Shown here: in pieces, positions 14,646-59,131 of the stretch
Layout: every line of letters begins with the position of its first letter
Numbering within the stretch: the first letter of the stretch is position 1
NCBI RefSeq assembly: GCF_001677475.2
Contig: NZ_CP015229.1
Strand: one strand, 5' to 3'
Source: Escherichia coli
GTDB lineage: Bacteria > Pseudomonadota > Gammaproteobacteria > Enterobacterales > Enterobacteriaceae
DNA: 64,000 bases
Made by a program: the position numbers and the translations under genes
Notes under the pieces: generated by a model
Told to the model about the DNA's origin: nothing
Databases searched by the model: none
What the model saw: the letters and a program-made list of their open reading frames with translations, nothing else

Positions 14646-16106
<1,461 letters not shown>

Positions 16107-16138
16107 TTAGTTACTGCAGTAGAGGATTTTTTACGGCT

Positions 16139-16175
16139 GCCGGATGCAGCGTGAACGCCCTATCCGGCCTACGGT
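16139..16175. repeat. REP (repetitive extragenic palindrome) element
   Basis: gccggatgcagcgtgaacgccctatccggcctacgg matches the canonical E. coli REP consensus. Confidence 0.6.
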
Positions 16176-16246
16176 TATGTTCTGGCTCGTTGGCCTTTGG
16201 CAACGATTATCATATGAGATTGGGGCAATTACGCGCCCTCGTCAAA

Positions 16247-29705: not shown

Positions 29706-31055
29706 ATGCTGGATAAAATTGTTATTGCCAACCGCGGCGAGATTGCATTGCGTATTCTTCGTGCCTGTAAAGAACTGGGCATCAAGACTGTCGCTGTGCA
29801 CTCCAGCGCGGATCGCGATCTAAAACACGTATTACTGGCAGATGAAACGGTCTGTATCGGCCCTGCTCCGTCAGTAAAAAGTTATCTGAACATCCCGGCA
29901 ATCATCAGCGCCGCTGAAATCACCGGCGCAGTAGCAATCCATCCGGGTTACGGCTTCCTCTCCGAGAACGCCAACTTTGCCGAGCAGGTTGAACGCTCCG
30001 GCTTTATCTTCATCGGCCCGAAAGCAGAAACCATTCGCCTGATGGGCGACAAAGTATCCGCAATCGCGGCGATGAAAAAAGCGGGCGTCCCTTGCGTACC
30101 GGGTTCTGACGGCCCGCTGGGCGACGATATGGATAAAAACCGTGCCATTGCTAAACGCATTGGTTATCCGGTGATTATCAAAGCCTCCGGCGGCGGCGGT
30201 GGTCGCGGTATGCGCGTAGTGCGCGGCGACGCTGAACTGGCACAATCCATCTCCATGACCCGTGCGGAAGCGAAAGCTGCTTTCAGCAACGATATGGTTT
30301 ACATGGAGAAATACCTGGAAAATCCTCGCCACGTCGAGATTCAGGTACTGGCTGACGGTCAGGGCAACGCTATCTATCTGGCGGAACGTGACTGCTCCAT
30401 GCAGCGCCGCCACCAGAAAGTGGTCGAAGAAGCACCAGCACCGGGCATTACCCCGGAACTGCGTCGCTACATCGGCGAACGTTGCGCTAAAGCGTGTGTT
30501 GATATCGGCTATCGCGGTGCAGGTACTTTCGAGTTCCTGTTCGAAAACGGCGAGTTCTATTTCATCGAAATGAACACCCGTATTCAGGTAGAACACCCGG
30601 TTACAGAAATGATCACCGGCGTTGACCTGATCAAAGAACAGCTGCGTATCGCTGCCGGTCAACCGCTGTCGATCAAGCAAGAAGAAGTTCACGTTCGCGG
30701 CCATGCGGTGGAATGTCGTATCAACGCCGAAGATCCGAACACCTTCCTGCCAAGTCCGGGCAAAATCACCCGTTTCCACGCACCTGGCGGTTTTGGCGTG
30801 CGTTGGGAGTCTCATATCTACGCGGGCTACACCGTACCGCCGTACTATGACTCAATGATCGGTAAGCTGATTTGCTACGGTGAAAACCGTGATGTGGCGA
30901 TTGCCCGCATGAAGAATGCGCTGCAGGAGCTGATCATCGACGGTATCAAAACCAACGTTGATCTGCAGATCCGCATCATGAATGACGAGAACTTCCAGCA
31001 TGGTGGCACTAACATCCACTATCTGGAGAAAAAACTCGGTCTTCAGGAAAAATAA
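29706..31055 (+). CDS. accC: Biotin carboxylase
   Basis: ORF trimmed to ATG 29706 giving 449 aa ([25 protein letters not shown]...). Confidence 0.97.
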
Positions 31056-31103
31056 TTTGTGACGCGCGGTGTTTTCATCGCGCTTAGCAAAGAACGTAAT
31101 CAA

Positions 31104-31136
31104 CGCCGGGCCTGTTAACGCTGCCCGGCGTTTTTA
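31104..31136 (+). terminator. Intrinsic terminator of the accBC operon
   Basis: cgccgggc-ctgttaacgct-gcccggcg followed by ttttta. Confidence 0.7.
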
Positions 31137-31146
31137 TTGCCGTTAG

Positions 31147-32193
31147 CTAACGGTAGCCTGCAATTTCCGCTTTCAACGCGCTCATTTCAGCATCGCCATC
31201 AACAATTCCCAGCTCAAAGCAGTATTTCTTTGTTTCCCCTGGCTCTATAAAGGGCAGACGCCCCTGCGCTCGTTCTTTATCACGACCGTCAGGAAAACTA
31301 TTGCTGACCTCCAGCCCCATAACATATTCACCCGCGCCTAAATTTTTCCACTGGATAAAGTTGGGTAGCTGCATGGTGTCGAATTTCTCGTAAATTCCCC
31401 ACCCCAGTTCAGCGTTCACCAGCGCAATTTTACTCATCCCCTGACTGTCGCTATTCAAGGTGAGATAGTAAACCTGCTCGTCAAAACCGGGCTGTGGGGT
31501 ACAAATCTCCAGATGACTGGTTAACCCTTCCGCCGCATGCGGAGTTCGTGGCGTTACGCTTTTAGCCGACAGCAAGATTTCTGCCTGTGGCGATAATAAA
31601 GGCCAGCCGTAATTAAAGTGATAAAGAATTTGCAGCGGCTGGCGGGTGAAACCATGATTAGTCACCTCGTCTTCAATGCGCAGCACATTTTCGCCATAAC
31701 GGCAGCGAATGGTCCTTTCCAGCGTCAGATTTTCACCGAACAATCGCGTTTCCCGTACTTTGCCATTGATGACAAATTCAATGCCGTCGTCGGTCCGTTC
31801 TGTGCGATACCCCACCTCTTCTGCTGGAGTCGCAGCCAAACGCCCATGTAACCCCAGCGTTTCTCCTTCATCCTCACAGGGCGTGCCAATGTAGCTAAGT
31901 CCGCAGGTAGTCAGTAACCCCGCGTAAAAGCTACGTAAAAACCCGTTGCCCTGAGACTCGAAAAAAGCGGGGGCGACAATGCCGTTGGGGGTGATAAAAG
32001 AGAGCGCAGTGTCCTTGTAGCTGGCCCATGCAATATCCAGCGCGCGATCTTTTACCACCGTAAATGCCAGTCCCGCACCAGTACGGACATCAAACGCTTC
32101 TGTACCCTTTGCTCTGCCACTACGTAACTCATAGTGTTTAATTCCGGCAACCTGCGAGAGATCGCCAATCCACGACCAAATTTCGTTTTTCAT
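31147..32193 (-). CDS. Island gene: conserved protein of unknown function, galactose-mutarotase-like / possibly DUF4432 family
   Basis: 348-aa ORF; start overlaps the stop of the upstream kinase gene by 4 nt (ATGA); no TM or signal peptide. Family assignment is from pattern recognition only and is low confidence. Confidence 0.7.
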   Translation of the reverse strand: MKNEIWSWIGDLSQVAGIKHYELRSGRAKGTEAFDVRTGAGLAFTVVKDRALDIAWASYKDTALSFITPNGIVAPAFFESQGNGFLRSFYAGLLTTCGLSYIGTPCEDEGETLGLHGRLAATPAEEVGYRTERTDDGIEFVINGKVRETRLFGENLTLERTIRCRYGENVLRIEDEVTNHGFTRQPLQILYHFNYGWPLLSPQAEILLSAKSVTPRTPHAAEGLTSHLEICTPQPGFDEQVYYLTLNSDSQGMSKIALVNAELGWGIYEKFDTMQLPNFIQWKNLGAGEYVMGLEVSNSFPDGRDKERAQGRLPFIEPGETKKYCFELGIVDGDAEMSALKAEIAGYR

Positions 32194-33152
32194 TGTGCTG
32201 CTTCCCGAATGGACATGTCATGGCGCTGGATGAACGTTTCGATTTCCGCAAGGCGAGACGTTCCCTCCATTGGGCCACGTCGGGTAACAGCCAGTGCACC
32301 GCAGGCGTTGGCATATTGTAATGCCCGATGGGCGTCAAACCCTAGCTGGCGGCAGGCAATCCACGCGCCACCAAAGCAGTCTCCCGCACCGGTCGGGTCA
32401 ACTTCTTCCACCGGATAGCTCTCAACATGAAACTGCTCATTCGCGGAGTAGTAACTGGCTCCTTGATTGCCGCGCTTCACAATCACCTCTTTAACACCTT
32501 CTTCAAGAAAACCAGCGATTGCACGCTCCGGCGTCGAATGTGGCGACAAGAGCAACACTTCGCCCTCGCTGGGCATATAGATATCCGTTAACTCAAGAAC
32601 AAAGTGGAGGGCGTCACGCATTTCTGGAATATCGAGCATCTCTTTTCGAATATTAGGGTCGAAAGAAATAACACCACCATTTGCTTTAACGATGGTTACC
32701 GCTTTTTTTACTGCGTCTACCATATGAAACGAAAACAGGGATGAACCCATAATATGAAAATGGGTACAGTCCTTCAGAATATTTTCATCAACATGCTGCG
32801 CCGATAATTTACCGCAAGCGGCATTCTTGATATTAAAAATAAAATCGCGATCGCCAGAGTTATGATAAGTAACAAAGGCGCTCCCGGTAGCTTCCAGAGG
32901 TAAGACTGAAATCCCCCTGATATCCACACCGTCAGCAGCCAGACGATGTATATTAATATCACCAAAGCCATCATTCCCCACACAGCTAATGATGCCGCAC
33001 GGAACGCCAAGACGTGTCACCTGGTCGATAAAAATAGCGGGCGCACCACTGGGATAAGGGCCGTTCCAGATACCTGGTTGATCAAATGGCTGGCCGATTT
33101 TACTCGCCATAATTTCAACCAAAATTTCTCCAATTGTGAAGACCTTACTCAT
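32190..33152 (-). CDS. Island gene: pfkB/ribokinase-family carbohydrate kinase (kinase 1)
   Basis: 320-aa ORF with pfkB signature DPTGAGDCFGGAW near the C-terminus and an N-terminal Gly-rich substrate lid. Confidence 0.85.
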   Translation of the reverse strand: MSKVFTIGEILVEIMASKIGQPFDQPGIWNGPYPSGAPAIFIDQVTRLGVPCGIISCVGNDGFGDINIHRLAADGVDIRGISVLPLEATGSAFVTYHNSGDRDFIFNIKNAACGKLSAQHVDENILKDCTHFHIMGSSLFSFHMVDAVKKAVTIVKANGGVISFDPNIRKEMLDIPEMRDALHFVLELTDIYMPSEGEVLLLSPHSTPERAIAGFLEEGVKEVIVKRGNQGASYYSANEQFHVESYPVEEVDPTGAGDCFGGAWIACRQLGFDAHRALQYANACGALAVTRRGPMEGTSRLAEIETFIQRHDMSIREAAQ

Positions 33153-33173
33153 ATGATTAATTCCTTGAAATGA

Positions 33174-34163
33174 TTAGCTGCGTTTTCTTTTATTTCTTAC
33201 GTCAAAATAAACGGCTACAAGAATGACTAATCCTTTAACCACCATCTGGTAAAAATAGGGAACATTCATTAAGTTCATGCCATTATTAATAACGCCGATG
33301 GTTAATGCGCCGATCACCGTCCCCACCACGGTTCCATAGCCGCCGTTCAGGCTGGTGCCTCCCAGTACAGCCGCGGCAATAGCATCCAGTTCGTAGCTCA
33401 ACGCGGAATTCGGTTGCCCGGAATAGAGGCGTGAGGCGAGGATCATCCCGCTGATACCTGCCAGCACGGCTGTAATCATAAAGACTTTAATTTTCAAGCG
33501 GGTGACATTTATCCCTGAATAAACTGCCGCTTCTTTATTACCACCAGTGATATAAATTTTTCGTCCAAAGGTTGTTTTAGTAAGAATGAAGTGGTTAATC
33601 AGCAATAAGATGATTAATATCCAGATAGGAATAGGTATATAGAGAAATTCTCCATTCCCCAGTGCCAGAAAGGCATCATCTTTAATCATGATGGGCATAC
33701 CATCGGTCACTATATAAGCGATACCACGGAAGATCCCCATTGTAGCAACGGTGACAATAAACGAAGGGATACCCGCTATAGCCGTCAAGCCACCATTTAT
33801 CATCCCCAGAGCCAGGGCTGCAATAATGGATAATGGGACCAATAAAATAAATGGAATTCCCCATGAAGCCCCAAGCGCAGCAAATGTGCCAATCAATGCA
33901 ATGGTTGAACCGACCGATAAATCAATATCGCCAAGCAAAAGTACATAAGTCATTCCATAGGCGGTAATTGCAATTATCGAAACCTGAAGAATAATATTAG
34001 TAATGTTATTGGCAGTAAAAAAACTGTCATTAATAAAACTGAACAGAATGATTAACACCACCATTCCACTGAGGATACCGCCATATTGCCTGAAGACTTT
34101 TTTAAAATTATTTGCAATGGGAATTTCCGAAGGTTTCGGACTGGCAAGAGTTTTCTCTGTCAT
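33174..34163 (-). CDS. Island gene: sugar ABC transporter permease (RbsC-like, CUT2 family)
   Basis: 329-aa highly hydrophobic ORF; abuts the ATPase gene (34163/34164). Confidence 0.85.
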   Translation of the reverse strand: MTEKTLASPKPSEIPIANNFKKVFRQYGGILSGMVVLIILFSFINDSFFTANNITNIILQVSIIAITAYGMTYVLLLGDIDLSVGSTIALIGTFAALGASWGIPFILLVPLSIIAALALGMINGGLTAIAGIPSFIVTVATMGIFRGIAYIVTDGMPIMIKDDAFLALGNGEFLYIPIPIWILIILLLINHFILTKTTFGRKIYITGGNKEAAVYSGINVTRLKIKVFMITAVLAGISGMILASRLYSGQPNSALSYELDAIAAAVLGGTSLNGGYGTVVGTVIGALTIGVINNGMNLMNVPYFYQMVVKGLVILVAVYFDVRNKRKRS

Positions 34164-35663
34164 TTAACGTACTCCTGTTGCAGCGGTCATTACCTGTGTC
34201 TGCGTTAAATTTTCACATGAATAAATATCGGCAATCGTTTTATTACGCATTACCACCAGACGATCGCTAAGTGCCATGACTTCTGGCAGTTCAGAGGACA
34301 CCAGAATAATTGCTGTCCCTGCCGCAGCCAGTTGACGTATCACGTTATAGATTTCAAATTTTGCGCCGACATCTACTCCGCGCGTTGGCTCATCGAGCAA
34401 TAAAATACGCGGAGTTTTCTCCAGCCACTTCGATAACACGATTTTCTGTTGATTACCGCCGCTCAGCGCTCCCACTGCCTGATGTACAGAACTCACTTTA
34501 GTGTTCATTCTGGCAATAGATTGCAGCGTCTTCGCCTCTTCTTGTCGGTGATTGATGAGTCCCATCCGCGAAGCGTTATATTGAAACGCCACATGGTGCG
34601 TGTTCATATTGACGTCGTGCATCAGCACTAACCCTTCTTCCTTGCGGTTTTCGGTCACAAAAGCAATGCCATGATCAATAGCCTGTTTGGGATTAGCGAT
34701 CCTGACTTCCTTACCATCAATCAACACAGTCCCGTGATACGAAACGAGGCCAAATAGCGCCTTCATCACATCGGAACGCCCGGCCCCCACCAGGCCAAAA
34801 AATCCGAGGACTTCCCCCGGACGCACAGCGAAACTGACCTCTTTAAAAAGCGAAGGATGGGAAAGGTTTTTTACTTCCAGTTTTGCAGGAACATTTTCAT
34901 CCGGCTTTTCCCCAAGACGTGCTGGCCAAATATTTTTCATTTCCCGACCAACCATTTGGGCAATCAAATGCTGGATATCACTGTTTTTCTTTTCATGCGT
35001 AGCGATATACTCACCGTCGCGGATCACCGAAATATCATCTGAAATCCGCATAATTTCATCCATGCGATGAGAGATATAAATAACCGCACAGCCTCGCTGC
35101 TTTAATTTTTCAATAATGTTAAACAGAATCTCTGCTTCATTATCACTTAGCGAAGATGTCGGTTCATCCATAATCACGACATCCGCTGCATAGCTTAAGG
35201 CTTTGGCAATTTCTACCAGTTGCCTATGTGCCATCGACATATCGCCGACCATTTCCAGCGGATCCAGAGGGATGCCCAGTTCCGCGAGGAGATTCTGGCA
35301 ATCTGCGAGCATTTTTTTATCATTAATAATGCCAAAACGTCGCAGTTCATTATTGGCATAAATATTTTCCGCCACGGTCATATTATTACTCAGGCTCAGT
35401 TCCTGAAAAATAATCGCAATCCCTAACTGGCGAGAATGCTGCGGATTATTAATGGTAATGGTTTCACCACGTAGTGTTATCGTTCCCTGGGTTGGCGGAT
35501 AAACACCGGCGAGTATTTTCATTAATGTCGATTTACCGGCACCATTCTCGCCTAATAAAGTATGCACCCGCCCTTTACGTAAAGAGAGTGTAATATTTTT
35601 TAATGCCTGAACATGACCAAATGTCTTCGCAATATGCGAAACATCAAGAATAACATCCGTCAT
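34164..35663 (-). CDS. Island gene: sugar ABC transporter ATP-binding protein with duplicated ABC domains (RbsA/MglA-like)
   Basis: 499-aa ORF; Walker A GENGAGKST in the N-terminal half and a second, degenerate nucleotide-binding domain. Confidence 0.85.
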   Translation of the reverse strand: MTDVILDVSHIAKTFGHVQALKNITLSLRKGRVHTLLGENGAGKSTLMKILAGVYPPTQGTITLRGETITINNPQHSRQLGIAIIFQELSLSNNMTVAENIYANNELRRFGIINDKKMLADCQNLLAELGIPLDPLEMVGDMSMAHRQLVEIAKALSYAADVVIMDEPTSSLSDNEAEILFNIIEKLKQRGCAVIYISHRMDEIMRISDDISVIRDGEYIATHEKKNSDIQHLIAQMVGREMKNIWPARLGEKPDENVPAKLEVKNLSHPSLFKEVSFAVRPGEVLGFFGLVGAGRSDVMKALFGLVSYHGTVLIDGKEVRIANPKQAIDHGIAFVTENRKEEGLVLMHDVNMNTHHVAFQYNASRMGLINHRQEEAKTLQSIARMNTKVSSVHQAVGALSGGNQQKIVLSKWLEKTPRILLLDEPTRGVDVGAKFEIYNVIRQLAAAGTAIILVSSELPEVMALSDRLVVMRNKTIADIYSCENLTQTQVMTAATGVR

Positions 35664-35723
35664 AATGACCTCGGTGTCACAACAAAACGTCGATAACGTT
35701 TTGTTGTGAAATGAAGATGTTTA

Positions 35724-36620
35724 TTATTTACCTGTATAAACGCCGGGTTGTACCGGGATCATTTTTTCTACCGGTTTACCATTGAGGTGATCAACAGCGG
35801 CATCAATGGCTTTAGCACCCATTTGATCGGGATATTGCCGAATCACGGCCGCAAACGTTTTTTCACTGTCAACGGCATCACGCGCTTCTTTCATGCCGTC
35901 AAAACCAATGATTTTGATGTTGTCGTTATGCGCAGATTTCGCTGCGATAACCGCTGCCAACGCCGCATCATCACCAAAGCCAAACAGACCATTCAGGTTG
36001 GCGTTGGCCTGCATAATGTTTTGCGCAGTCGTTAACGCTTCAGCCCGCGTTATACCTGGCTGTTCAGCAACAATTCTAATATTCGGTGTCTCGCTTAACC
36101 CTTTCTTAAAACCATCAACGCGCGCAACCACCGATTGTAGTGCCGGATAAGAAATAATGGCTACAGTACCTTTGCCATTCAAAAGTTTGCCCATTAACTT
36201 GCCTGCTTCAACGCCTCCCGCGTAGTTATCGGTCGCAACATGCGATACGACCGGAACGCCTTCCGCAGCGACGTCGACGGTGATAACGGGAATACCGGCC
36301 TTATCGGCTTTAATTATCGCCGCCTGGACGCCTTTCGAATCAACCGGAGAGATAATAATGGCATCCACTTTTTTAGTAATAAAATCCTCAACATCAGAAA
36401 GTTGTTTGTTTAAATCCTGATTGGCAATAGAGACACTTAAATTGACATTGTCTTTTTTTGCCTCTTCTTTCATGGCATTCGCAAGATCAATATAGAAAGG
36501 ATGTTGCTGTGTTAATAATGACGCACCAATTTTATACTCTTTTGCCAATGAACTTTGCGAGAATAATGCCAGGCTCACCAACATAGCTGAACCAAGTAAT
36601 TTAATATTTTTCATAAACAA
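35724..36620 (-). CDS. Island gene: periplasmic sugar-binding protein (type I PBP, RbsB-like) with signal peptide
   Basis: 298-aa ORF; N-terminal signal peptide ending ...SSLA-KEYKIG; start may be ATG two codons downstream. Confidence 0.8.
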   Translation of the reverse strand: MFMKNIKLLGSAMLVSLALFSQSSLAKEYKIGASLLTQQHPFYIDLANAMKEEAKKDNVNLSVSIANQDLNKQLSDVEDFITKKVDAIIISPVDSKGVQAAIIKADKAGIPVITVDVAAEGVPVVSHVATDNYAGGVEAGKLMGKLLNGKGTVAIISYPALQSVVARVDGFKKGLSETPNIRIVAEQPGITRAEALTTAQNIMQANANLNGLFGFGDDAALAAVIAAKSAHNDNIKIIGFDGMKEARDAVDSEKTFAAVIRQYPDQMGAKAIDAAVDHLNGKPVEKMIPVQPGVYTGK

Positions 36621-36649
36621 TCCTCATTGTTTTTGTAGGTTACAACGTA

Positions 36650-37828
<1,179 letters not shown>

Positions 37829-38659
37829 ATGAAGAGTGTTAACGTGCCGAGAAAATCGTCTAACCTACTGAAACGCAGATTAAAAATTGCAGAAATTGTT
37901 GCCGCCCAGGGTGAAATCAAAGTTGATGACTTATCTGCGCAACTTGGTGTCTCTGGCGTGACGATCCGCGGCGATCTCAGTTATCTGGAGCAACAGGGAT
38001 ATTTAAAGCGATCATTTGGCGGTGCTATTGCGACACCACTCTCCTCTGAACCAGAAGCGATACAACCGATCGCGCCATTGTCTCTGGCACAACAAATGGA
38101 AATAGCACGACATTGCGCACGGTTAATTCGGGATCGTGACACGCTATTTCTTGGACATGGGACAATCTGCCGTAAGATCATTCCCTTGCTCAGCGAAGTG
38201 AAAAAACTGCGTCTGATCACCAACGATCCCGAACATGCGCTGCTGGCAAATCAGTTTATTGATGGCGAAATAATACTGGCTGGCAGTGAAATGCTGCGCC
38301 CCGACACCGCACTGGCCGGAAAACCGCTTGAACAGGCACTTCAGCATTTCACCATTACACATAGCATTCTGGAAATCAGCCATCTGGATGCTGATGGTAC
38401 TTTAAATATCAACGTTCCCAGACTTGCCGCTGCCTGGCAGCTCTGTTTCGATCATGCCCAAAATAAGACAGTTATCGTTGCCGCCGACCCTGCGCCATCA
38501 ACGGCTGCTATCGGGCATTTGCATCAGGCAGAAAATGTGATCGTCAGCCGCAGCATTAACGAACAATATCAGCAACAATTGCAGTCGGCTGATTTCGTTA
38601 TCCTTTATACCAGTAATGAGTGCTTTACCTGGTCCAATCGCGAAAGGCTTCAGGAATGA
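37829..38659 (+). CDS. Island gene: DeoR-family transcriptional regulator
   Basis: 276-aa ORF; N-terminal HTH (LSAQLGVSGVTIRGDLSYLEQQGYLKR) and C-terminal sugar-phosphate sensor domain; exact start uncertain. Confidence 0.8.
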   Translation: MKSVNVPRKSSNLLKRRLKIAEIVAAQGEIKVDDLSAQLGVSGVTIRGDLSYLEQQGYLKRSFGGAIATPLSSEPEAIQPIAPLSLAQQMEIARHCARLIRDRDTLFLGHGTICRKIIPLLSEVKKLRLITNDPEHALLANQFIDGEIILAGSEMLRPDTALAGKPLEQALQHFTITHSILEISHLDADGTLNINVPRLAAAWQLCFDHAQNKTVIVAADPAPSTAAIGHLHQAENVIVSRSINEQYQQQLQSADFVILYTSNECFTWSNRERLQE

Positions 38660-38669
38660 GAGGGGTTTT

Positions 38670-39626
38670 GTGACAATAACTATCTGCGCTATGGGCGAAT
38701 TGCTGGCCGAGTTTTTGTCCCGCAACCCACATCAAAAATTCACTCAGCCTGGAGAGTTTATCGGGCCATTTCCCAGCGGTGCGCCAGCAATTTTTGCTGC
38801 TCAGGTGGCAAAACTGTCCCATCGGGCCATCTTCTTTGGATGTGTTGGTAATGATGATTTTGGCCGACTCATTATAGAGCGTCTCCGTCATGAAGGTGTC
38901 ATTACCGATGGGATTCGCGTTATGAACAATGCCGTCACAGGTACGGCGTTCGTGAGTTATCAAAATCCCCAGCAGCGGGATTTCGTCTTTAATATCCCTA
39001 ACAGCGCCTGCGGTTTGTTTACTGCTGAGCACATTGATAAGGATCTGCTAAAACAGTGTAACCATCTCCATATTGTGGGCTCATCGTTGTTCTCATTTCG
39101 CATGATCGATGTCATGCGTAAAGCAATAACGACGATCAAATCGGCTGGCGGCACCGTTTCTTTCGATCCCAATATTCGCAAAGAGATGCTGAGCATTCCT
39201 GAAATGGCGCAGGCCCTCGATTATTTGATTGAATATACGGATATTTTTATCCCCAGCGAAAGCGAACTCCCTTTCTTCGCGCGTCACAAAAATCTGCCAG
39301 AAGAACAGATTGTTAGCGATCTTCTCCACGGCGGCGTAAAACATGTGGCGATAAAACGCGCCCAGCGTGGGGCCAGCTATTACAAGCTTAAAAACGGTAC
39401 ATTACACGCCCAGCATGTTACAGGCCACGATATCGAAATTATCGATCCAACGGGTGCAGGCGACTGCTTTGGCGCAACGTTTATCACTCTTTTCTTATCC
39501 GGTTTCCCGGCACATAAGGCACTGCAATATGCAAATGCCAGCGGCGCGCTCGCCGTAATGCGGCAAGGTCCGATGGAAGGGATATCCTCACTGGCTGACA
39601 TTGAAGACTTTTTGCAGCAGCACTGA
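38670..39626 (+). CDS. Island gene: second pfkB-family carbohydrate kinase (kinase 2), paralogous to kinase 1
   Basis: ORF track starts at 38616 and overlaps the regulator; trimmed to in-frame GTG 38670 with GAGGGG RBS, which aligns its N-terminus with kinase 1. Signature DPTGAGDCFGATF. Confidence 0.8.
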   Translation: MTITICAMGELLAEFLSRNPHQKFTQPGEFIGPFPSGAPAIFAAQVAKLSHRAIFFGCVGNDDFGRLIIERLRHEGVITDGIRVMNNAVTGTAFVSYQNPQQRDFVFNIPNSACGLFTAEHIDKDLLKQCNHLHIVGSSLFSFRMIDVMRKAITTIKSAGGTVSFDPNIRKEMLSIPEMAQALDYLIEYTDIFIPSESELPFFARHKNLPEEQIVSDLLHGGVKHVAIKRAQRGASYYKLKNGTLHAQHVTGHDIEIIDPTGAGDCFGATFITLFLSGFPAHKALQYANASGALAVMRQGPMEGISSLADIEDFLQQH

Positions 39627-39718
39627 ACGGCAATTTTCTGTCAGATTATTTTCCCTGCCTGAAGACTTGCCGTAGAATTGCCCGTTTCTCGTATCCCCCC
39701 ATGAGGAGGACCCCTTCC

Positions 39719-39961
39719 GTGGACACTCGTTTTGTTCAGGCCCATAAAGAGGCGCGCTGGGCGCTGGGGCTGACCCTTTTGTATCTGGCGGTTTGGTTAG
39801 TAGCCGCTTACTTACCTGGCGTTGCCCCCGGTTTTACCGGCTTTCCGCGCTGGTTTGAGATGGCCTGCATCCTGACGCCGCTGCTGTTTATTGGACTGTG
39901 CTGGGCGATGGTGAAATTTATCTATCGCGATATCCCACTGGAGGATGACGATGCAGCTTGA
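39719..39961 (+). CDS. yhdT: Small inner-membrane protein YhdT (DUF997)
   Basis: Start set at GTG 39719 downstream of GAGGAGGA; 80 aa; overlaps the panF start. Confidence 0.85.
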   Translation: MDTRFVQAHKEARWALGLTLLYLAVWLVAAYLPGVAPGFTGFPRWFEMACILTPLLFIGLCWAMVKFIYRDIPLEDDDAA

Positions 39962-41402
39962 AGTAATTCTACCGCTGGTCGCCTATCTGGTGGTGGTGTT
40001 CGGTATCTCTGTTTATGCGATGCGTAAACGGAGCACCGGCACCTTCCTTAATGAGTATTTCCTCGGCAGCCGCTCTATGGGCGGTATTGTGCTGGCGATG
40101 ACGCTCACCGCGACCTATATCAGTGCCAGTTCGTTTATCGGCGGGCCTGGAGCTGCTTATAAATACGGCCTGGGTTGGGTATTACTGGCGATGATTCAGC
40201 TTCCTGCAGTCTGGCTTTCACTCGGTATTCTCGGCAAGAAGTTCGCGATTCTTGCGCGCCGCTACAATGCAGTGACGCTGAACGATATGCTATTTGCCCG
40301 CTACCAGAGTCGTCTTCTGGTGTGGCTGGCGAGTTTGAGTTTGCTGGTTGCGTTCGTTGGTGCGATGACCGTGCAGTTTATCGGCGGTGCGCGCCTGCTG
40401 GAAACCGCGGCGGGTATTCCTTATGAAACCGGGCTGCTGATTTTTGGTATCAGCATTGCGTTATATACCGCCTTTGGTGGCTTTCGCGCCAGCGTGCTGA
40501 ACGACACCATGCAAGGGCTGGTAATGCTGATTGGCACCGTTGTGCTGCTTATTGGCGTGGTACATGCCGCTGGCGGCTTAAGCAACGCAGTACAGACCTT
40601 GCAAACTATCGATCCGCAACTGGTTACGCCACAAGGCGCTGACGATATTCTGTCGCCTGCCTTTATGACATCGTTCTGGGTACTGGTGTGTTTTGGCGTG
40701 ATTGGCCTGCCGCATACTGCGGTGCGCTGTATCTCTTATAAAGACAGCAAAGCCGTACACCGGGGGATCATCATCGGTACGATTGTGGTCGCAATTCTGA
40801 TGTTCGGTATGCACCTGGCCGGAGCGTTAGGTCGGGCGGTGATCCCCGATCTCACCGTACCGGACCTGGTGATCCCAACGTTAATGGTAAAAGTGCTGCC
40901 ACCGTTTGCTGCCGGGATCTTCCTGGCTGCACCGATGGCCGCGATCATGTCGACGATCAATGCCCAGTTGCTGCAAAGTTCCGCTACGATCATTAAAGAT
41001 CTCTATCTGAATATCCGTCCGGATCAAATGCAAAACGAGACGCGTCTGAAGCGGATGTCGGCGGTAATTACGTTAGTTCTCGGTGCGTTGCTGCTGCTTG
41101 CCGCCTGGAAGCCGCCAGAAATGATCATCTGGCTGAATTTGCTGGCCTTCGGTGGGCTGGAAGCCGTTTTCCTGTGGCCGCTGGTGCTGGGTCTTTACTG
41201 GGAACGCGCCAACGCCAAAGGCGCGCTAAGTGCGATGATCGTTGGCGGCGTACTGTATGCCGTACTCGCGACACTGAATATTCAGTACCTGGGCTTCCAC
41301 CCTATCGTGCCCTCGTTACTACTAAGTTTGCTGGCTTTCCTGGTCGGAAACCGTTTCGGTACATCCGTCCCGCAAGCTACCGTTTTTACTACTGATAAAT
41401 AA
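39951..41402 (+). CDS. panF: Sodium/pantothenate symporter
   Basis: ORF trimmed to ATG 39951 giving 483 aa ([26 protein letters not shown]...). Confidence 0.95.
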
Positions 41403-41413
41403 AGAGTTTTGCC

Positions 41414-42295
41414 ATGCCTTGGATCCAACTGAAACTGAACACCACCGGCGCGAACGCGGAAGATCTTAGCGATGCGCTGATGGAAGCGGGTGCCGTTTCT
41501 ATCACTTTTCAGGATACCCACGATACGCCAGTATTTGAGCCGCTGCCGGGCGAAACTCGCCTGTGGGGCGACACCGATGTGATTGGTCTGTTCGACGCTG
41601 AAACCGATATGAACGACGTGGTGGCGATTCTGGAAAACCATCCGCTGCTCGGCGCAGGCTTCGCGCATAAAATCGAACAATTGGAAGATAAAGACTGGGA
41701 GCGCGAATGGATGGATAATTTCCACCCGATGCGCTTTGGTGAACGACTGTGGATCTGCCCAAGCTGGCGTGATGTCCCGGACGAAAACGCCGTCAACGTG
41801 ATGTTAGACCCAGGGCTGGCGTTTGGTACAGGGACTCATCCAACTACCTCTCTGTGCCTGCAATGGCTCGACAGCCTCGATTTAACTGGTAAAACGGTCA
41901 TCGACTTTGGCTGCGGTTCCGGCATTCTGGCTATTGCGGCGCTGAAGTTAGGTGCAGCAAAAGCCATTGGTATTGATATCGATCCGCAGGCGATTCAGGC
42001 CAGCCGCGACAACGCCGAACGTAATGGCGTTTCTGACCGTCTGGAACTCTACTTACCGAAAGATCAGCCAGAAGAAATGAAAGCCGACGTGGTGGTCGCT
42101 AACATCCTTGCAGGCCCATTACGTGAACTGGCACCGTTAATCAGCGTCCTGCCGGTTTCAGGCGGTTTGCTGGGCCTTTCCGGTATTCTGGCAAGCCAGG
42201 CAGAGAGCGTTTGTGAAGCTTATGCCGACAGCTTCGCACTGGACCCGGTCGTGGAAAAAGAAGAGTGGTGCCGCATTACCGGTCGTAAGAATTAA
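41414..42295 (+). CDS. prmA: Ribosomal protein L11 methyltransferase
   Basis: 293-aa ORF with SAM-binding [13 protein letters not shown]. Confidence 0.95.
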
Positions 42296-42555
42296 CCTTC
42301 GCATCGCCGTAGGGTGACGCAGGGCGAAGTGCGAGCAAGGTCACAAAAGGCACGTTAATTTGCCGATTATTTACGCAAATTTGCGTGCCAAAATTTTCAT
42401 TCATAAAGAAAAATTGAGAACTTACTCAAATTTCTTTGAGTGTAAATTTTAGTCACTATTTTCTAATATGATGATTTTTATGAGTAATTATCGCGCCACG
42501 CTCATTTTAAATGCAATTCTTTGATCCATCTCAGAGGATTGGTCAAAGTTTGGCC

Positions 42556-42590
42556 TTTCATCTCGTGCAAAAAATGCGTAATATACGCCG
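42556..42590 (+). promoter_or_regulatory. Putative dusB-fis promoter (-35 TTCATC, -10 TAATAT, GC-rich discriminator ACGCCGCC)
   Basis: Seen directly about 35 bp upstream of dusB within an AT-rich region; a GC-rich discriminator is typical of stringently controlled promoters. Confidence 0.5.
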
Positions 42591-42623
42591 CCTTGCAGTC
42601 ACAGTATGGTCATTTCTTAACTC

Positions 42624-43589
42624 ATGCGCATCGGACAATATCAGCTCAGAAATCGCCTGATCGCAGCGCCCATGGCTGGCATTACAGACAGACCTTTTCG
42701 GACGTTGTGCTACGAGATGGGAGCCGGATTGACAGTATCCGAGATGATGTCTTCTAACCCACAGGTTTGGGAAAGCGACAAATCTCGTTTACGGATGGTG
42801 CACATTGATGAACCCGGTATTCGCACCGTGCAAATTGCTGGTAGCGATCCGAAAGAAATGGCAGATGCAGCACGTATTAACGTGGAAAGCGGTGCCCAGA
42901 TTATTGATATCAATATGGGTTGCCCGGCTAAAAAAGTGAATCGCAAGCTCGCAGGTTCAGCCCTCTTGCAGTACCCGGATGTCGTTAAATCGATCCTTAC
43001 CGAGGTCGTCAATGCAGTGGACGTTCCTGTTACCCTGAAAATTCGCACTGGCTGGGCACCGGAACACCGTAACTGCGAAGAGATTGCCCAACTGGCTGAA
43101 GACTGTGGCATTCAGGCTCTGACCATTCATGGCCGTACACGCGCCTGTTTGTTCAATGGAGAAGCTGAGTACGACAGTATTCGGGCAGTTAAGCAGAAAG
43201 TTTCCATTCCGGTTATCGCGAATGGCGACATTACTGACCCGCTTAAAGCCAGAGCTGTGCTCGACTATACAGGGGCGGATGCCCTGATGATAGGCCGCGC
43301 AGCTCAGGGAAGACCCTGGATCTTTCGGGAAATCCAGCATTATCTGGACACTGGGGAGTTGCTGCCCCCGCTGCCTTTGGCAGAGGTTAAGCGCTTGCTT
43401 TGCGCGCACGTTCGGGAACTGCATGACTTTTATGGTCCGGCAAAAGGGTACCGAATTGCACGTAAACACGTTTCCTGGTATCTCCAGGAACACGCTCCAA
43501 ATGACCAGTTTCGGCGCACATTCAACGCCATTGAGGATGCCAGCGAACAGCTGGAGGCGTTGGAGGCATACTTCGAAAATTTTGCGTAA
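42624..43589 (+). CDS. dusB: tRNA-dihydrouridine synthase B
   Basis: 321-aa ORF ([26 protein letters not shown]...). Confidence 0.95.
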
Positions 43590-43614
43590 ACAGAAATAAA
43601 GAGCTGACAGAACT

Positions 43615-43911
43615 ATGTTCGAACAACGCGTAAATTCTGACGTACTGACCGTTTCTACCGTTAACTCTCAGGATCAGGTAACCCAAAAACCCCTGCGTGA
43701 CTCGGTTAAACAGGCACTGAAGAACTATTTTGCTCAACTGAACGGTCAGGATGTGAATGACCTCTATGAGCTGGTACTGGCTGAAGTAGAACAGCCCCTG
43801 TTGGACATGGTGATGCAATACACCCGTGGTAACCAGACCCGTGCTGCGCTGATGATGGGCATCAACCGTGGTACGCTGCGTAAAAAATTGAAAAAATACG
43901 GCATGAACTAA
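43615..43911 (+). CDS. fis: Nucleoid-associated protein Fis
   Basis: 98-aa ORF, exact Fis sequence ([32 protein letters not shown]...). Confidence 0.97.
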
Positions 43912-43936
43912 TTCAGGTTAGCTAAATGCTTGATTA

Positions 43937-43974
43937 AAAAGGCGCTACTCGGCATGGGGAAGCGCCTTTTTTAT
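43937..43974 (+). terminator. Intrinsic terminator after fis
   Basis: aaaaaggcgct...agcgcctttttt hairpin. Confidence 0.7.
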
Positions 43975-43996
43975 AGGTGTCACAAAGGGAGTGACC

Positions 43997-44881
43997 ATGA
44001 GAACAGGATGTGAACCGACCCGATTTGGTAATGAAGCAAAGACCATCATCCAGGGTGATGCATTAACCGAACTTAAAAAGATCCCCGCCGAAAGTGTAGA
44101 TCTGATCTTTGCCGACCCACCGTATAACATCGGTAAAAATTTTGATGGTCTGATCGAAGCCTGGAAAGAAGATCTGTTTATCGACTGGCTGTTTGAAGTA
44201 ATTGCAGAGTGCCACCGCGTTCTGAAAAAGCAGGGCAGCATGTACATCATGAACAGCACGGAAAACATGCCCTTTATCGATCTCCAGTGCCGCAAGCTTT
44301 TTACCATCAAAAGTCGCATCGTCTGGTCATATGACAGTTCTGGAGTGCAGGCGAAAAAACACTACGGCTCCATGTACGAACCCATCCTGATGATGGTGAA
44401 AGACGCAAAGAACTACACGTTCAACGGTGATGCTATTCTGGTAGAAGCCAAAACCGGATCGCAGCGCGCGTTGATCGATTATCGCAAAAATCCTCCACAG
44501 CCTTACAATCATCAAAAAGTACCGGGTAACGTCTGGGATTTTCCGCGCGTGCGTTATTTGATGGATGAATATGAGAATCACCCGACGCAAAAACCGGAAG
44601 CCTTACTGAAACGCATTATTCTCGCCTCTTCCAACCCAGGCGATATCGTTCTCGACCCGTTTGCCGGTAGCTTTACTACCGGTGCCGTAGCCGTCGCCAG
44701 CGGGCGAAAATTCATTGGTATTGAGATCAACAGCGAGTACATCAAAATGGGGCTTCGACGGCTGGATGTCACGTCGCATTACTCTGCGGAAGAACTGGCG
44801 AAAGTGAAAAAAAGAAAGACCAGCAACCTGTCAAAACGAAGCAGGTTAAGCGAAGTTGACCCCGATCTCATTGCAAAGTAA
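43997..44881 (+). CDS. yhdJ: DNA adenine methyltransferase YhdJ
   Basis: ORF trimmed by 2 codons to give 294 aa; N6-adenine MTase motif DPPY (IFADPPYNIG). Confidence 0.9.
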   Translation: MRTGCEPTRFGNEAKTIIQGDALTELKKIPAESVDLIFADPPYNIGKNFDGLIEAWKEDLFIDWLFEVIAECHRVLKKQGSMYIMNSTENMPFIDLQCRKLFTIKSRIVWSYDSSGVQAKKHYGSMYEPILMMVKDAKNYTFNGDAILVEAKTGSQRALIDYRKNPPQPYNHQKVPGNVWDFPRVRYLMDEYENHPTQKPEALLKRIILASSNPGDIVLDPFAGSFTTGAVAVASGRKFIGIEINSEYIKMGLRRLDVTSHYSAEELAKVKKRKTSNLSKRSRLSEVDPDLIAK

Positions 44882-44964
44882 AGGAAGTGTAAGCCTGGTT
44901 TTCAGATTATTCATTTCGTGTATATTTCCTGCCAGACTTGGTTAAACATGCACAGGCTCAGGTA

Positions 44965-45144
44965 ATGATTCGCAAGTATTGGTGGCTCGTCGTTTTCGCT
45001 GTCTTCGTTTTTCTGTTTGATACTTTACTGATGCAGTGGATTGAACTGCTGGCAACAGAAACAGACAAATGCCGCAATATGAACTCAGTTAATCCACTAA
45101 AACTGGTTAACTGTGACGAACTGAATTTTCAGGACAGAATGTGA
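44965..45144 (+). CDS. yhdU: Small membrane protein YhdU
   Basis: ORF trimmed to the internal ATG giving 59 aa (MIRKYWWLVVFAVFVFLFDTLL...). Confidence 0.75.
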   Translation: MIRKYWWLVVFAVFVFLFDTLLMQWIELLATETDKCRNMNSVNPLKLVNCDELNFQDRM

Positions 45145-45146
45145 AT

Positions 45147-45809
45147 TTATATGACACTTAATTCATTCGTTTGATGAATTAATTTCGTTATGTTTTCATC
45201 TGGCATGAACATTCTTAATACGTTATCGACCAGTGCGGGTGCTTGTTTATAAAGATCATAACCCGCCATATTCATTAACCAGTTTTGAACAATTCCGCTG
45301 AAGGCACCATCAATAATAATCATCACAACATCTAAATCGAGATTATTTGCTATACAACCTTGTTGCTGACATGCCTGCAATACTTCGTGGAGAGTCTGCG
45401 GATTAAAACCCATCTTTTCGCGTATCACTCCCTCTGCCAGCATCTCATCATTAAATTCACATTTGTGATATAAGATTTTCAGCAACGACTGCTGGCGGGG
45501 AATTTTGGCAATATATTGCAAGCCAACAATCAATTTTTCACGCAATTGCTGAAACGGGTCATGCTCTAACCCAGCAGTCAAGTGATCCTGGATTAACTCC
45601 CGCAATGAAGGCTGTTGCAACCACATCTCATTAAACAGTTGGGTCTTGTTCTCGAAGTGCCAGTAGATAGCGCCACGCGTAACGTTAGCGGCGTCGGCAA
45701 TGTCGTTGAGCGTCGTCTTGCTTACGCCATGCTGCGCAAACTGGGCGATGGCAGTTTCAATCAGTTCTTGCCGGGTCTTCAGGGCTTCAGCTTTGGTTCT
45801 TTTTGCCAT
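45147..45809 (-). CDS. acrS: TetR-family repressor AcrS (EnvR)
   Basis: 220-aa ORF with N-terminal TetR HTH, divergent from acrEF. Confidence 0.9.
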   Translation of the reverse strand: MAKRTKAEALKTRQELIETAIAQFAQHGVSKTTLNDIADAANVTRGAIYWHFENKTQLFNEMWLQQPSLRELIQDHLTAGLEHDPFQQLREKLIVGLQYIAKIPRQQSLLKILYHKCEFNDEMLAEGVIREKMGFNPQTLHEVLQACQQQGCIANNLDLDVVMIIIDGAFSGIVQNWLMNMAGYDLYKQAPALVDNVLRMFMPDENITKLIHQTNELSVI

Positions 45810-46206
45810 GATTAATTATTCAGGAAATAAATATATTCGACACAGGATGAGAAAATAGCGAAGGTTAATCTATCATCTAATGTGTATTTATACGAGAGGG
45901 TAACATTGAGTTGCTATAAATCGTCAAATAAATAATATATATTATTTACCTAAGATACATTCACTACATCAATATATATTTCAATTTACGAGGTTTTAAT
46001 TCTGCTTCTTTCAGCCCGCGTCAAAACAAAACATTAGAATATTAATCTTTTTTTGCGTTTATGTGCCTTAGACGCCAGTATTCATAACTATTTCTTACAT
46101 CGACGAATGATAATTTGTAGGATAGCGAACTGTATTTTTCTTTCTGCGAGTTAACGCGTTGCCTTTTCGGGTAAATAACGCGCTTTTGGTTTTTTGAGGA
46201 ATAGTA

Positions 46207-47364
46207 ATGACGAAACATGCCAGGTTTTTCCTCCTGCCCTCCTTTATCCTGTTCTCCGCTGCTTTAATCGCAGGCTGTAACGATAAGGGAGAAGAGAAAG
46301 CTCACGTCGGTGAACCGCAGGTTACCGTTCATGTTGTGAAAACGGCCCCGCTAGAAGTTAAGACTGAATTACCAGGCCGCACCAACGCTTTCCGTATAGC
46401 CGAAGTTCGCCCACAGGTTAGCGGGATCGTACTGAATCGCAATTTCACTGAAGGCAGCGATGTGCAAGCAGGCCAGTCCCTGTACCAGATCGATCCCGCG
46501 ACCTATCAGGCAAATTATGACAGCGCGAAAGGCGAACTGGCGAAAAGTGAAGCCGCCGCCGCCATCGCGCATTTGACGGTAAAACGTTACGTTCCGCTCG
46601 TGGGTACGAAATACATCAGTCAGCAGGAGTACGACCAGGCCATTGCTGATGCTCGCCAGGCCGATGCCGCCGTGATTGCCACAAAAGCCACGGTCGAAAG
46701 CGCTCGCATCAATCTCGCTTATACCAAAGTGACTGCGCCAATTAGCGGACGTATCGGCAAATCGACTGTGACCGAAGGCGCTCTTGTCACTAATGGGCAA
46801 ACGACTGAACTGGCGACTGTCCAGCAGCTCGATCCTATCTACGTTGATGTGACCCAATCCAGCAACGATTTTATGAGGCTGAAGCAATCCGTAGAGCAAG
46901 GAAATTTGCATAAGGAAAACGCCACCAGCAACGTAGAGTTGGTCATGGAAAACGGTCAAACCTATCCCCTGAAAGGTACGCTGCAATTCTCCGATGTGAC
47001 CGTTGATGAAAGCACCGGCTCCATAACCCTACGTGCCGTCTTCCCTAACCCGCAACATACGCTTTTACCTGGTATGTTTGTGCGCGCACGGATTGATGAA
47101 GGCGTCCAATCTGATGCCATTCTTATCCCGCAACAAGGCGTTAGCCGCACACCGCGTGGTGATGCAACCGTGCTGATTGTTAACGATAAAAGTCAGGTTG
47201 AAGCGCGCCCTGTCGTTGCCAGCCAGGCGATTGGCGATAAATGGTTGATTAGCGAAGGTCTGAAATCTGGCGATCAAGTCATTGTCAGCGGCCTGCAAAA
47301 AGCGCGTCCGGGAGAGCAGGTTAAAGCCACTACCGATATCCCCGCAGATACTGCATCGAAGTAA
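46207..47364 (+). CDS. acrE: Multidrug efflux membrane-fusion lipoprotein AcrE
   Basis: 385-aa ORF with lipobox (LIAGC). Confidence 0.95.
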
Positions 47365-47375
47365 GGCAATCTGAC

Positions 47376-50300: not shown

Positions 50301-50480
50301 ATGACCTCTCTCGCCTTTATTCTCGGCGTATTACCGCTAGCTATCAGTAACGGTGCCGGCAGTGGCGCGCAGAACGCAGTGGGTATCGGGGTAATGGGCG
50401 GGATGGTCTCTGCAACGTTGCTGGCAATCTTCTTCGTGCCGGTGTTCTTTGTGGTGATCCGCCGTTGCTTTAAAGGATAA
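47376..50480 (+). CDS. acrF: RND multidrug efflux transporter AcrF
   Basis: 1034-aa ORF ([23 protein letters not shown]...). Confidence 0.95.
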
Positions 50481-50491
50481 ATCAGAAACAT

Positions 50492-50520
50492 AAAGGCACT
50501 TTCGGGTGCCTTTATTATTT
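50492..50520 (+). terminator. Intrinsic terminator after acrF
   Basis: aaaggcac-tttcggg-tgccttt followed by attattt. Confidence 0.65.
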
Positions 50521-50732
50521 CCAGTGAAACCCATAAAAATTAATAAGATATTCCTCTACTCACTCTTTAAAAACTTTCTATAGTTCCCGCTCCCTTCACT
50601 ATTTTTACAATTCACATAATTTGTCATTATTCATTCCGCAAGATTTATAACCTCCAGTGATAAAATGGCATTCAGCTCGTTAATAAGAGAGTTAACTTAT
50701 TAAGCGTTAGCGTTTATTACTGAGGTAACACC

Positions 50733-50954
50733 ATGAAAAGATTAATTCCTGTGGCATTGCTCACCGCATTGCTGGCGGGCTGTGCTCACGATTCGCCCTG
50801 CGTTCCGGTTTATGACGATCAGGGTCGACTGGTTCACACTAATACCTGTATGAAAGGCACGACTCAGGATAACTGGGAAACGGCTGGGGCTATTGCTGGC
50901 GGGGCAGCAGCTGTTGCTGGCCTGACGATGGGGATCATCGCTCTGTCGAAATAA
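50733..50954 (+). CDS. yhdV: Small lipoprotein YhdV
   Basis: 73-aa ORF with lipobox LLAGC and Gly/Ala-rich C-terminal TM-like segment. Confidence 0.85.
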   Translation: MKRLIPVALLTALLAGCAHDSPCVPVYDDQGRLVHTNTCMKGTTQDNWETAGAIAGGAAAVAGLTMGIIALSK

Positions 50955-51384
50955 CTGAACAGAGCGCGGAGTACCGCGCTCTGTTTAACGATACAGTATC
51001 TCACCATAAGATAAAATATTGCTATATTCTGCTGGGTAATTCCCTGCTGATTTAGCATGTTATATCGCGTTATTTCGCTGCTTTCGAAATAACGCATCAA
51101 TTTAATTTTCACACTTCCTACCAGAAATATACTCACGCTAACAATCATTATTCTGCTTAGTAAAAAACGCGTAAATATTTTGCGCCAAAATGTGGCGCAT
51201 GTTTCATTTTCGCACCATTGCGGGGCGCTGTTTTTATTATTTCCTGTCTACACTCAGCTTATTGCGACGCGAAATCGTGCGCAAAAGCTGGCACTACTTT
51301 TGCTTATAAGAGGATGGCCACAGACAGGTAAAAGACGTTTCCCAAATGTCCTATAACGATAATTTTCGCCTCACAGGAAGCATT

Positions 51385-52410: not shown

Positions 52411-52477
52411 GTCGGTGTGAGGTAACGAGCGTCGCTACGGCGGCGCTCTCTTCAGCGTTATGCTTTCCGAGGTTTCT

Positions 52478-53659: not shown

Positions 53660-53668
53660 GGAGTCATG

Positions 53669-54772: not shown

Positions 54773-54779
54773 GGACACT

Positions 54780-55538: not shown

Positions 55539-55558
55539 TTGAATGTTAGTTCGAAAAG

Positions 55559-55590
55559 CAAAAAGGCCATCCTTTCGGATGGCCTTTCGC
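55559..55590. terminator. rrnD distal terminator (T2-like); also placed to terminate yhdZ
   Basis: aaaaaggccatcc-tttc-ggatggccttt: perfect hairpin with A-run one side and T-rich tract the other. Confidence 0.6.
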
Positions 55591-55720
55591 TTGATTTGAT
55601 GTCTGGCAGTTTATGGCGGCGTCCTGCCCGCCACCCTCCGGGCCGTTGCTTCGCAACGTTCAAATCCGCTCCCGGCGGATTTGTCCTACTCGGGAGAGTG
55701 TTCACCGACAAACAGCAGAT

Positions 55721-55760
55721 AAAACAAAAGGCCCAGTCTTCCGACTGAGCCTTTTGTTTT
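55721..55760 (-). terminator. rrnD proximal terminator (T1-like) just downstream of the distal 5S gene
   Basis: aaaacaaaaggcccagtcttccgactgagccttttgtttt: symmetric hairpin. Confidence 0.65.
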
Positions 55761-55765
55761 ATTTG

Positions 55766-56228: not shown

Positions 56229-59131
<2,903 letters not shown>

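Follow-up and report, generated by a model that had tools for sequence, protein, structure and literature searches.

The catabolism of D-tagatose in Escherichia coli has been described for the strain Nissle 1917 (EcN), in which an 8.5-kb, eight-gene region that lies between accC and yhdT, and is absent in K-12, was reported by Ha et al. in 2022 (PMC9720028). The gene names tagK, tagR, tagY, tagA, tagB, tagC, tagD and tagE and the regulatory map of the region are those of Park et al. in 2025 (PMC12226905), and a 2026 comparative-genomics paper refers to the same region as 'GR 23 accC..yhdT' in extraintestinal pathogenic E. coli (ExPEC) strains. Here, we analysed a stretch of 64,000 nucleotides of an E. 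coli genome (contig NZ_CP015229.1, assembly GCF_001677475.2), hereafter referred to as the window, in which an allele-specific segment of 8,663 bp (31056-39718) separates the accC stop (31055) from the yhdT start (39719). This segment very probably represents the tag locus of the E. coli chromosome, a module for the uptake and catabolism of D-tagatose. Publications on the same accC-yhdT site already cover the locus together with its substrate, pathway and regulator, and the only new item relative to the published locus is a lineage-specific 18-bp in-frame deletion in tagY.

The function of the locus in EcN was established genetically. Deletion of the six-gene operon, or of tagD alone, abolished growth on D-tagatose, and the cloned operon made K-12, B and W strains grow on tagatose (PMC9720028). 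The growth of cluster-bearing K-12 on this sugar required the host gene pfkA and not pfkB, TagK was dispensable for growth on tagatose and was no substitute for TagD, and TagY worked without a GatZ/KbaZ partner in the cluster (PMC9720028). Tagatose induced the operon from 40-fold to more than 1000-fold, while tagRK showed only an approximately two-fold change (PMC9720028). Over-expression of TagR shut off the reporter and prevented growth on tagatose, the promoter was catabolite-repressed, and TagK was co-transcribed with the repressor gene tagR at a steady level (PMC12226905). The repressor role of TagR and the catabolite repression of the operon are therefore demonstrated in EcN.

The comparison with the EcN reference (NZ_CP058217; locus ECOLIN_RS18670-18705, equal to HW372_RS02435-02470) showed that the window is colinear with EcN, at 97.6% DNA identity over 13.2 kb. 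An open reading frame (ORF) scan recovered eight intact genes between accC and yhdT (31147-39626), arranged as six packed minus-strand ORFs (37486-31147) and, divergent from them, two plus-strand ORFs (37829-39626). The encoded proteins are 96.8-99.7% identical to their EcN orthologues, contain no frameshifts or stops, and are full length with the exception of TagY, which has 278 residues in the window and 284 in EcN. The two loci share the site, the gene order, the orientation and the deficit in GC content (46.3% in the island versus 50.9% in the rest of the window); they do not differ in the promoters or the CRP site, and their operators are nearly identical. The NCBIfam models alone also point to tagatose, since both kinases found their best match in NF049991 'tagatose kinase' and the aldolase passed the cut-offs of the tagatose-bisphosphate aldolase models (TIGR01858, 455.1 bits versus 443.55; NF009374, 500.7 versus 383). 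The transporter components were RbsABC/AraGH-like in the same models.

A first-pass annotation, made from the letters of the window, had placed eight ORFs at these coordinates and strands, and the ORF scan reproduced this layout exactly; only the starts of tagA and tagK were corrected. Its family labels were upheld by the family scans, which gave a DUF4432/aldose-1-epimerase-like protein, two pfkB kinases, a CUT2 permease, an ATPase with two nucleotide-binding domains, an RbsB-like binding protein, a GatY-like aldolase and a DeoR regulator. Its view of an accessory, self-regulated uptake and catabolism module was also supported. It had further guessed that a free ketose, imported by an ATP-binding cassette (ABC) transporter, is turned into a ketose-1,6-bisphosphate, from which a class II aldolase yields triose phosphates, and this is the chemistry of the published pathway. 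Its statement that the substrate cannot be read from sequence did not stand, as the family models already indicate tagatose, and the supposedly unexplained module turned out to be near-identical to a characterised operon with a defined substrate, an outcome that the annotation itself had named as refuting its reading. The assignment of the two pfkB kinases to successive steps was likewise not borne out, because the second phosphorylation is performed by the host PfkA and TagK is unneeded on tagatose (PMC9720028).

In the proposed mechanism, TagA would bind periplasmic D-tagatose and a TagB2C2-type CUT2 ABC transporter would import the free sugar, as homology suggests. TagD then phosphorylates D-tagatose to tagatose-6-phosphate, as the EcN deletion showed, and the host PfkA (6-phosphofructokinase I), whose gene lies outside the island, performs the second phosphorylation to tagatose-1,6-bisphosphate, as shown by the pfkA deletion in cluster-bearing K-12. 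TagY, by homology a zinc-dependent class II aldolase, is predicted to cleave this product into dihydroxyacetone phosphate and glyceraldehyde-3-phosphate, both of which would enter glycolysis. TagR, expressed together with TagK from the promoter Preg at a roughly constant level, represses the operon promoter Ptag, presumably by binding a pair of operators located across the transcription start. This repression is lifted by tagatose, the presumed inducer, and cAMP-CRP is required. In this strain the aldolase step may be weakened, or reliant on the host GatY/KbaY, because the six-residue deletion in TagY adjoins the strand of a zinc-ligand histidine.

Several other described systems share parts of this design. 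The tagatose/galactitol/D-altritol clusters of Sinorhizobium meliloti and Agrobacterium tumefaciens have in common with the window the binding protein, the ATPase, the permease, the tagatose kinase and the DeoR regulator (PMC9720028). In the rhizobial clusters, a tagatose-6-phosphate epimerase leads to fructose-6-phosphate, whereas in the window the DUF4432 protein TagE occupies that position and the route proceeds through PfkA and the class II aldolase (PMC9720028). The gat and aga/kba systems (GatYZ, KbaYZ) and the phosphotransferase system (PTS) tagatose pathway of Klebsiella oxytoca share the last step, a class II tagatose-1,6-bisphosphate aldolase; TagY was reported to be 63.7% identical to GatY (PMC9720028), and we found that it aligns to AgaY (1GVF) at an E value of 2e-98. 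These pathways differ from the tag locus in that uptake through the PTS delivers a phosphorylated sugar, and in that GatY and KbaY work with a GatZ or KbaZ partner, for which the ORF and family scans detected no ORF in the island. The rbs operon (RbsDACBK) shares the CUT2 transporter, namely a double-domain ATPase, a permease and an RbsB-like protein, together with a kinase of the ribokinase superfamily, but it is unlike tag in its aldopentose substrate, its LacI-type repressor and its lack of an aldolase.

Nothing counts against the identification of the segment as the tag locus. TagD marginally missed the equivalog cut-off of NF049991 (414.1 versus 420 bits), and neither of the two tag-locus papers presents a biochemical assay of any Tag protein or measures ligand binding to TagA or TagR (PMC12226905, PMC9720028). 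As regards function in this strain, TagY lacks residues 164-169, a segment that is kept in 20 of 20 solved class II aldolase homologues and in all other aligned island alleles. In the AlphaFold model of the shortened protein (Delta6), helix 157-167 is reduced to four residues, and the predicted local confidence (pLDDT) of the block falls from 78-96 to 54-67.

The deletion removes 18 bp in frame, with its junction at approximately 36997-37000 and a TTG microhomology, and eliminates the residues VQRTQI (EcN residues 164-169). The lost segment aligns to VELTGV of AgaY (1GVF), directly before the motif of the zinc-ligand residue His180. The zinc-ligand histidines His83, His180 and His208 (AgaY numbering) formed invariant columns in the alignment and correspond to H83, H174 and H202 in the window TagY. 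In the wild-type model, four of the deleted residues form the end of helix 157-167, and the other two belong to the three-residue loop before strand 171-176, which is followed by the invariant GTAHG motif. Between the wild-type and the Delta6 models the mean pLDDT decreased from 86.4 to 80.9 with a closed barrel still predicted (predicted template modelling score 0.84), both models being built from a shallow alignment of five sequences with a method that does not measure stability. The models are no more than suggestive of a local defect in the Delta6 protein. The deletion junction was found in none of the 5,426 complete RefSeq E. coli genomes. The exact 278-residue TagY is, however, on record from at least 23 contigs of different samples (ANO91180.1), and a stretch of 6.8 kb that spans the deletion matches the window at 100% in two independent assemblies; identical contigs are present in GCA_016118665.1 and ERR10434813. 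The Delta18 tagY is no sequencing error but a genuine allele that belongs to a small lineage, and its recurrence shows that it is not strongly counter-selected.

The foremost alternative to an intact pathway is that the tag locus is catabolically crippled here, the deletion having inactivated or destabilized TagY, so that either the host GatY/KbaY performs the cleavage or tagatose-1,6-bisphosphate accumulates and the strain is unable to grow on tagatose or is sensitive to it. We give this somewhat less than an even chance. The loss of a helix end together with most of the loop leading into strand 171-176, the drop in local model confidence, and a gap that is seen in no solved homologue, in no other allele and in no complete RefSeq genome all argue for it. 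The deletion is nonetheless in frame and the remainder of the gene is undamaged, with 275 of the 278 aligned residues outside it identical to EcN, and this makes Delta18 tagY a variant allele of the same gene and not a different gene. The persistence of the allele across samples and the closed barrel, from a predictor that does not report on stability, also speak for a TagY that still functions, and gatY and kbaY are normally present in E. coli as back-ups (PMC9720028). D-tagatose is used as a food sweetener, and natural variants with altered function, the TagY deletion among them, help to judge whether a given strain can really use the sugar. As a discovery the locus adds little, and what interest is left attaches to this deletion, to what TagK and TagE do and to the molecule that TagR senses.

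TagK and TagE might have sensory or accessory roles that lie outside the published model, with TagK acting as a priming kinase and TagE as a converter of sugar ring forms; as a whole, we consider this extension unlikely. Well-studied repressors of the DeoR family typically sense sugar phosphates, and in the lsr system the co-transcribed kinase LsrK makes the phosphorylated inducer of LsrR. By analogy, TagK may phosphorylate the first imported tagatose to tagatose-6-phosphate, which would be the real inducer of TagR instead of free tagatose. Together with the shortened TagY, such roles could make this lineage a natural case of partly lost function, able to sense tagatose but poor at processing it. 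TagK, which shares 52% identity with its paralogue TagD, scored 345.1 bits on NF049991, under the cut-off of 420, and for this protein the label of tagatose kinase should not be used. It is also unlikely to be the 'missing' tagatose-6-phosphate kinase, since it belongs, like TagD, to the free-sugar-kinase branch, as seen in its 345 bits on the tagatose kinase model versus 47-49 bits on models of the 1-phosphofructokinase type.

For TagE, the rbs operon suggests a role, as its RbsD pyranase is a small enzyme that converts sugar ring forms. In a ketohexose, the 6-OH is tied up in the pyranose ring, and a reasonable guess is therefore that TagE would act on tagatopyranose, the dominant form, to give the furanose or the open chain, which alone offers TagD a free 6-OH, in an RbsD-like manner, although TagE is unrelated in sequence to RbsD. 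The tagE gene (31147-32193, minus strand) encodes a protein of the DUF4432/aldose-1-epimerase family with 348 residues, 97.4% identical to EcN TagE. It matched Pfam PF14486 at an E value of 3e-104, and its closest solved structure is 3TY1, a 'hypothetical aldose 1-epimerase'. The literature search for a function of DUF4432 gave nothing relevant.

A further alternative holds that D-tagatose is just one of several substrates, or a gratuitous substrate, and that under physiological conditions the locus serves a different ketohexose or related sugar, with TagK phosphorylating a second co-imported sugar. D-tagatose is rare in nature, both kinases fall under the NCBIfam equivalog cut-off, and TagK is a diverged paralogue of the tagatose kinase that is dispensable on tagatose. 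The alpha-proteobacterial relatives have moreover been reported for tagatose, galactitol and altritol routes (PMC9720028). Set against this are the more than 1000-fold induction by D-tagatose and an operon that is both necessary and sufficient for growth on it (PMC9720028). The ORF and family scans also detected no dehydrogenase or isomerase in the island that would funnel another sugar into tagatose. A different physiological substrate is therefore quite unlikely.

It is very improbable that the locus is an uptake system for an aldose of the ribose/allose type with a 'ribokinase II'. The idea draws on the structures 3IQ0/3K9E, to which TagD is near-identical and which were deposited as 'putative ribokinase II', and on TagA, whose best named relatives are ribose-binding proteins. 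TagD, however, scored 116 bits on the ribokinase model (cut-off 300) versus 414 on the tagatose kinase model, an aldose pathway would need no ketose-bisphosphate aldolase, and the tagD deletion abolished growth on tagatose (PMC9720028). A ribose-type identity is in practice ruled out by the curated hidden Markov model (HMM) cut-offs and the published genetics.

An lsr-type system for the uptake and processing of the autoinducer 2 (AI-2) signal has a negligible probability and is ruled out by the curated HMM cut-offs and the published genetics: the layout resembles lsrRK/lsrACDBFG, with a repressor and a kinase divergent from an operon of ABC importer plus aldolase, and there are weak NCBIfam matches to LsrA, LsrB, LsrC and LsrD, but the likeness stops at the layout, as the protein families differ or fail the cut-offs (LsrB 40 bits versus 384, LsrA 403 versus 586, both below the ribose, arabinose and xylose models), the kinase is of the pfkB type and not an FGGY LsrK, the regulator is of the DeoR type and not a SorC-type LsrR, the aldolase is class II and GatY-like and not LsrF, and the genetics directly concern tagatose (PMC9720028).

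The D-tagatose reading thus retained, the remaining genes of the island can be described by their position. On the minus strand, tagD (32190-33152) encodes the D-tagatose kinase of the pfkB family, with 320 residues and 99.7% identity to EcN TagD. It is preceded in the direction of transcription by tagC (33174-34163), the gene of a permease of the CUT2/RbsC-AraH type (329 residues, 99.4% identical to EcN TagC, AraH/RbsC-like in NCBIfam), and by tagB (34164-35663), which encodes the ABC ATPase with two nucleotide-binding domains (499 residues, 99.0% identical to EcN TagB, XylG/AraG/RbsA-like in NCBIfam). The periplasmic sugar-binding protein is encoded by tagA (35724-36614, minus strand); it is RbsB-like, has 296 residues and is 98.6% identical to EcN TagA. 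Its most likely start is the ATG at 36614 rather than the TTG at 36620, because a signal peptide follows from there, the N-terminus MKNIKLLGSAMLVSLALFSQSSLA/KE being a Sec signal peptide (MKNIKLL..SLA/KE). The first gene of the operon, tagY (36650-37486, minus strand), encodes the class II, GatY-like tagatose-1,6-bisphosphate aldolase.

On the plus strand, tagR (37829-38659) encodes the DeoR/GlpR-family repressor of the tag operon, with 276 residues and 99.3% identity to EcN TagR. It is followed by tagK (38670-39626), the gene of the second pfkB sugar kinase, which is 98.7% identical to EcN TagK and can be read from the GTG at 38670 (318 residues) or from the ATG at 38691 (311 residues, as in RefSeq). 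The GTG has a GAGGGG Shine-Dalgarno sequence 4 nt upstream, its 318-residue product regains a TagD-like N-terminal strand, and this is the form annotated on 827 contigs. A start at the ATG at 38616, which gives the longest ORF, is unlikely because of its overlap with tagR.

The regulatory elements lie in the divergent tagY-tagR spacer, which has 342 bp in the window, one base more than the 341 bp of EcN (PMC9720028), and carries Ptag, Preg, the CRP site and the operators tagO1 and tagO2. The promoters and transcription start sites of EcN were mapped by differential RNA sequencing (PMC12226905). Ptag, on the minus strand, consists of the -10 element TAGTTT (37557-37562) and the -35 element TTTTTG (37578-37583), and the CRP site TTCGA-N6-TCACG is found at 37585-37600 on the same strand. 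Preg, from which tagR and tagK are read on the plus strand (37783-37810), has the -35 element TTCAAA, a 16-nt spacer and the -10 element TATAGT. All three are the elements that are identical to EcN. The predicted TagR operators were located by comparison with the sequences given in PMC12226905: tagO2 (37513-37531, plus strand) has one substitution relative to EcN, and tagO1 (37537-37555, minus strand) has two, at its distal end. The two operators form an inverted repeat around CAAAATGAA.

A perfect 15-bp stem-loop, which is not mentioned in the tag papers, was found in the tagA-tagB spacer (35677-35709, minus strand; -22.6 kcal/mol, z -4.6), just upstream of the tagB ribosome-binding site. Its position suggests that it may protect the 3' end of the tagY-tagA message or attenuate the expression of the membrane components.

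The boundaries of the island were examined by comparison with K-12 BW25113, in which accC is directly followed by yhdT with a spacer of 108 bp, in keeping with the empty K-12 site of the first-pass annotation. The similarity between the window and K-12 ends at the accC stop codon and restarts at the yhdT start codon. The left spacer of the island-bearing allele (31056-31146, plus strand) includes the intrinsic terminator of accC, which had also been proposed at first pass and was confirmed as a strong hairpin with a U-run (-23 kcal/mol, z = -3.5): a stem-loop at approximately 31102-31132 with a 10-bp G+C-rich stem plus UUUUUAUU, then TTTTTATT. The right spacer (39627-39718, plus strand) leads to the GTG start of yhdT at 39719. 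Local alignments of the K-12 spacer with these two spacers scored 18 and 17, no higher than shuffled controls reached (maxima 21 and 26), and so do not discriminate between insertion and deletion. The ORF, family and repeat scans detected no integrase or transposase, no tRNA or att site and no terminal direct or inverted repeats flanking the segment, which thus lacks the marks of a mobile genomic island; its edges fall at the stop codon of accC and the start codon of yhdT. Two long inverted repeats, I1 and I3, just reflect the paralogy of tagD and tagK on opposite strands.

The yhdT start is GTG in the island-bearing alleles (window and EcN) and ATG in K-12, and the region upstream of yhdT-panF differs throughout from K-12. 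Strains with and without the island must therefore use different transcription and translation signals for yhdT-panF(-prmA), and transcription from tagRK may read through into these genes.

The BLASTN-type survey called for at first pass was performed with megablast and detected the island in 1,419 of the 5,426 complete E. coli genomes (approximately 26%), with an empty site in K-12 and O157:H7. This distribution is consistent with the published enrichment of the locus in phylogroups B2 and F (PMC9720028), to which many extraintestinal pathogens belong. Among the island matches in the E. coli collection, one or two were on records typed as plasmids, and these may be genuine plasmid copies or artefacts of assembly or typing. 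The host background of the window is that of a rare or deep-branching E. coli lineage, as indicated by low best identities in both the core flank (39700-59700, at most 98.5% identical to any of the 5,426 complete RefSeq genomes) and the island (30900-39900, best match 98.4%). The per-kilobase identity to EcN was similar in the island and its flanks, which indicates that the island diverged together with the host lineage.

The eight genes were also found between accC and yhdT in four further assemblies, two labelled E. albertii (TagY allele) and two labelled E. ruysiae (TagK allele), these labels being taken from protein names. In both pairs, identity to the window is 93-96.5% for the flanking accC, panF and prmA; for the island genes it is 95-98% in the pair labelled E. 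albertii and 86-92% in the pair labelled E. ruysiae. This species-level divergence, the shared site, the lack of mobility genes, tRNA and terminal repeats, and the divergence along with the host lineage together suggest that the island is an old resident of its site in the genus, with its patchiness arising from loss or replacement through the conserved flanks and not from recent insertion. The published view is one of horizontal acquisition, drawn from the GC content (PMC9720028). The two views are compatible.

Further observations were made in these assemblies and in the rest of the window. In the E. albertii-labelled CP117583.1 (locus 10014-10781), the binding-protein gene is called with 255 residues versus 296, perhaps because tagA is damaged there or its start was miscalled. 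In the E. ruysiae-labelled GCA_025672585.1 (locus 14299-18638), phage-like genes (a PhageMin_Tail tape-measure gene and small ORFs) directly follow fis and replace yhdJ-yhdU-acrS, which looks like a prophage inserted a few kilobases from the tag locus. The window also carries a complete rRNA operon on the minus strand (55768-61119), with two 5S genes and the Ile, Ala and Thr tRNAs, which is annotated likewise at the corresponding position in EcN. An Rfam match to StyR-44 lies just upstream of its 23S gene, in the 16S-23S spacer.

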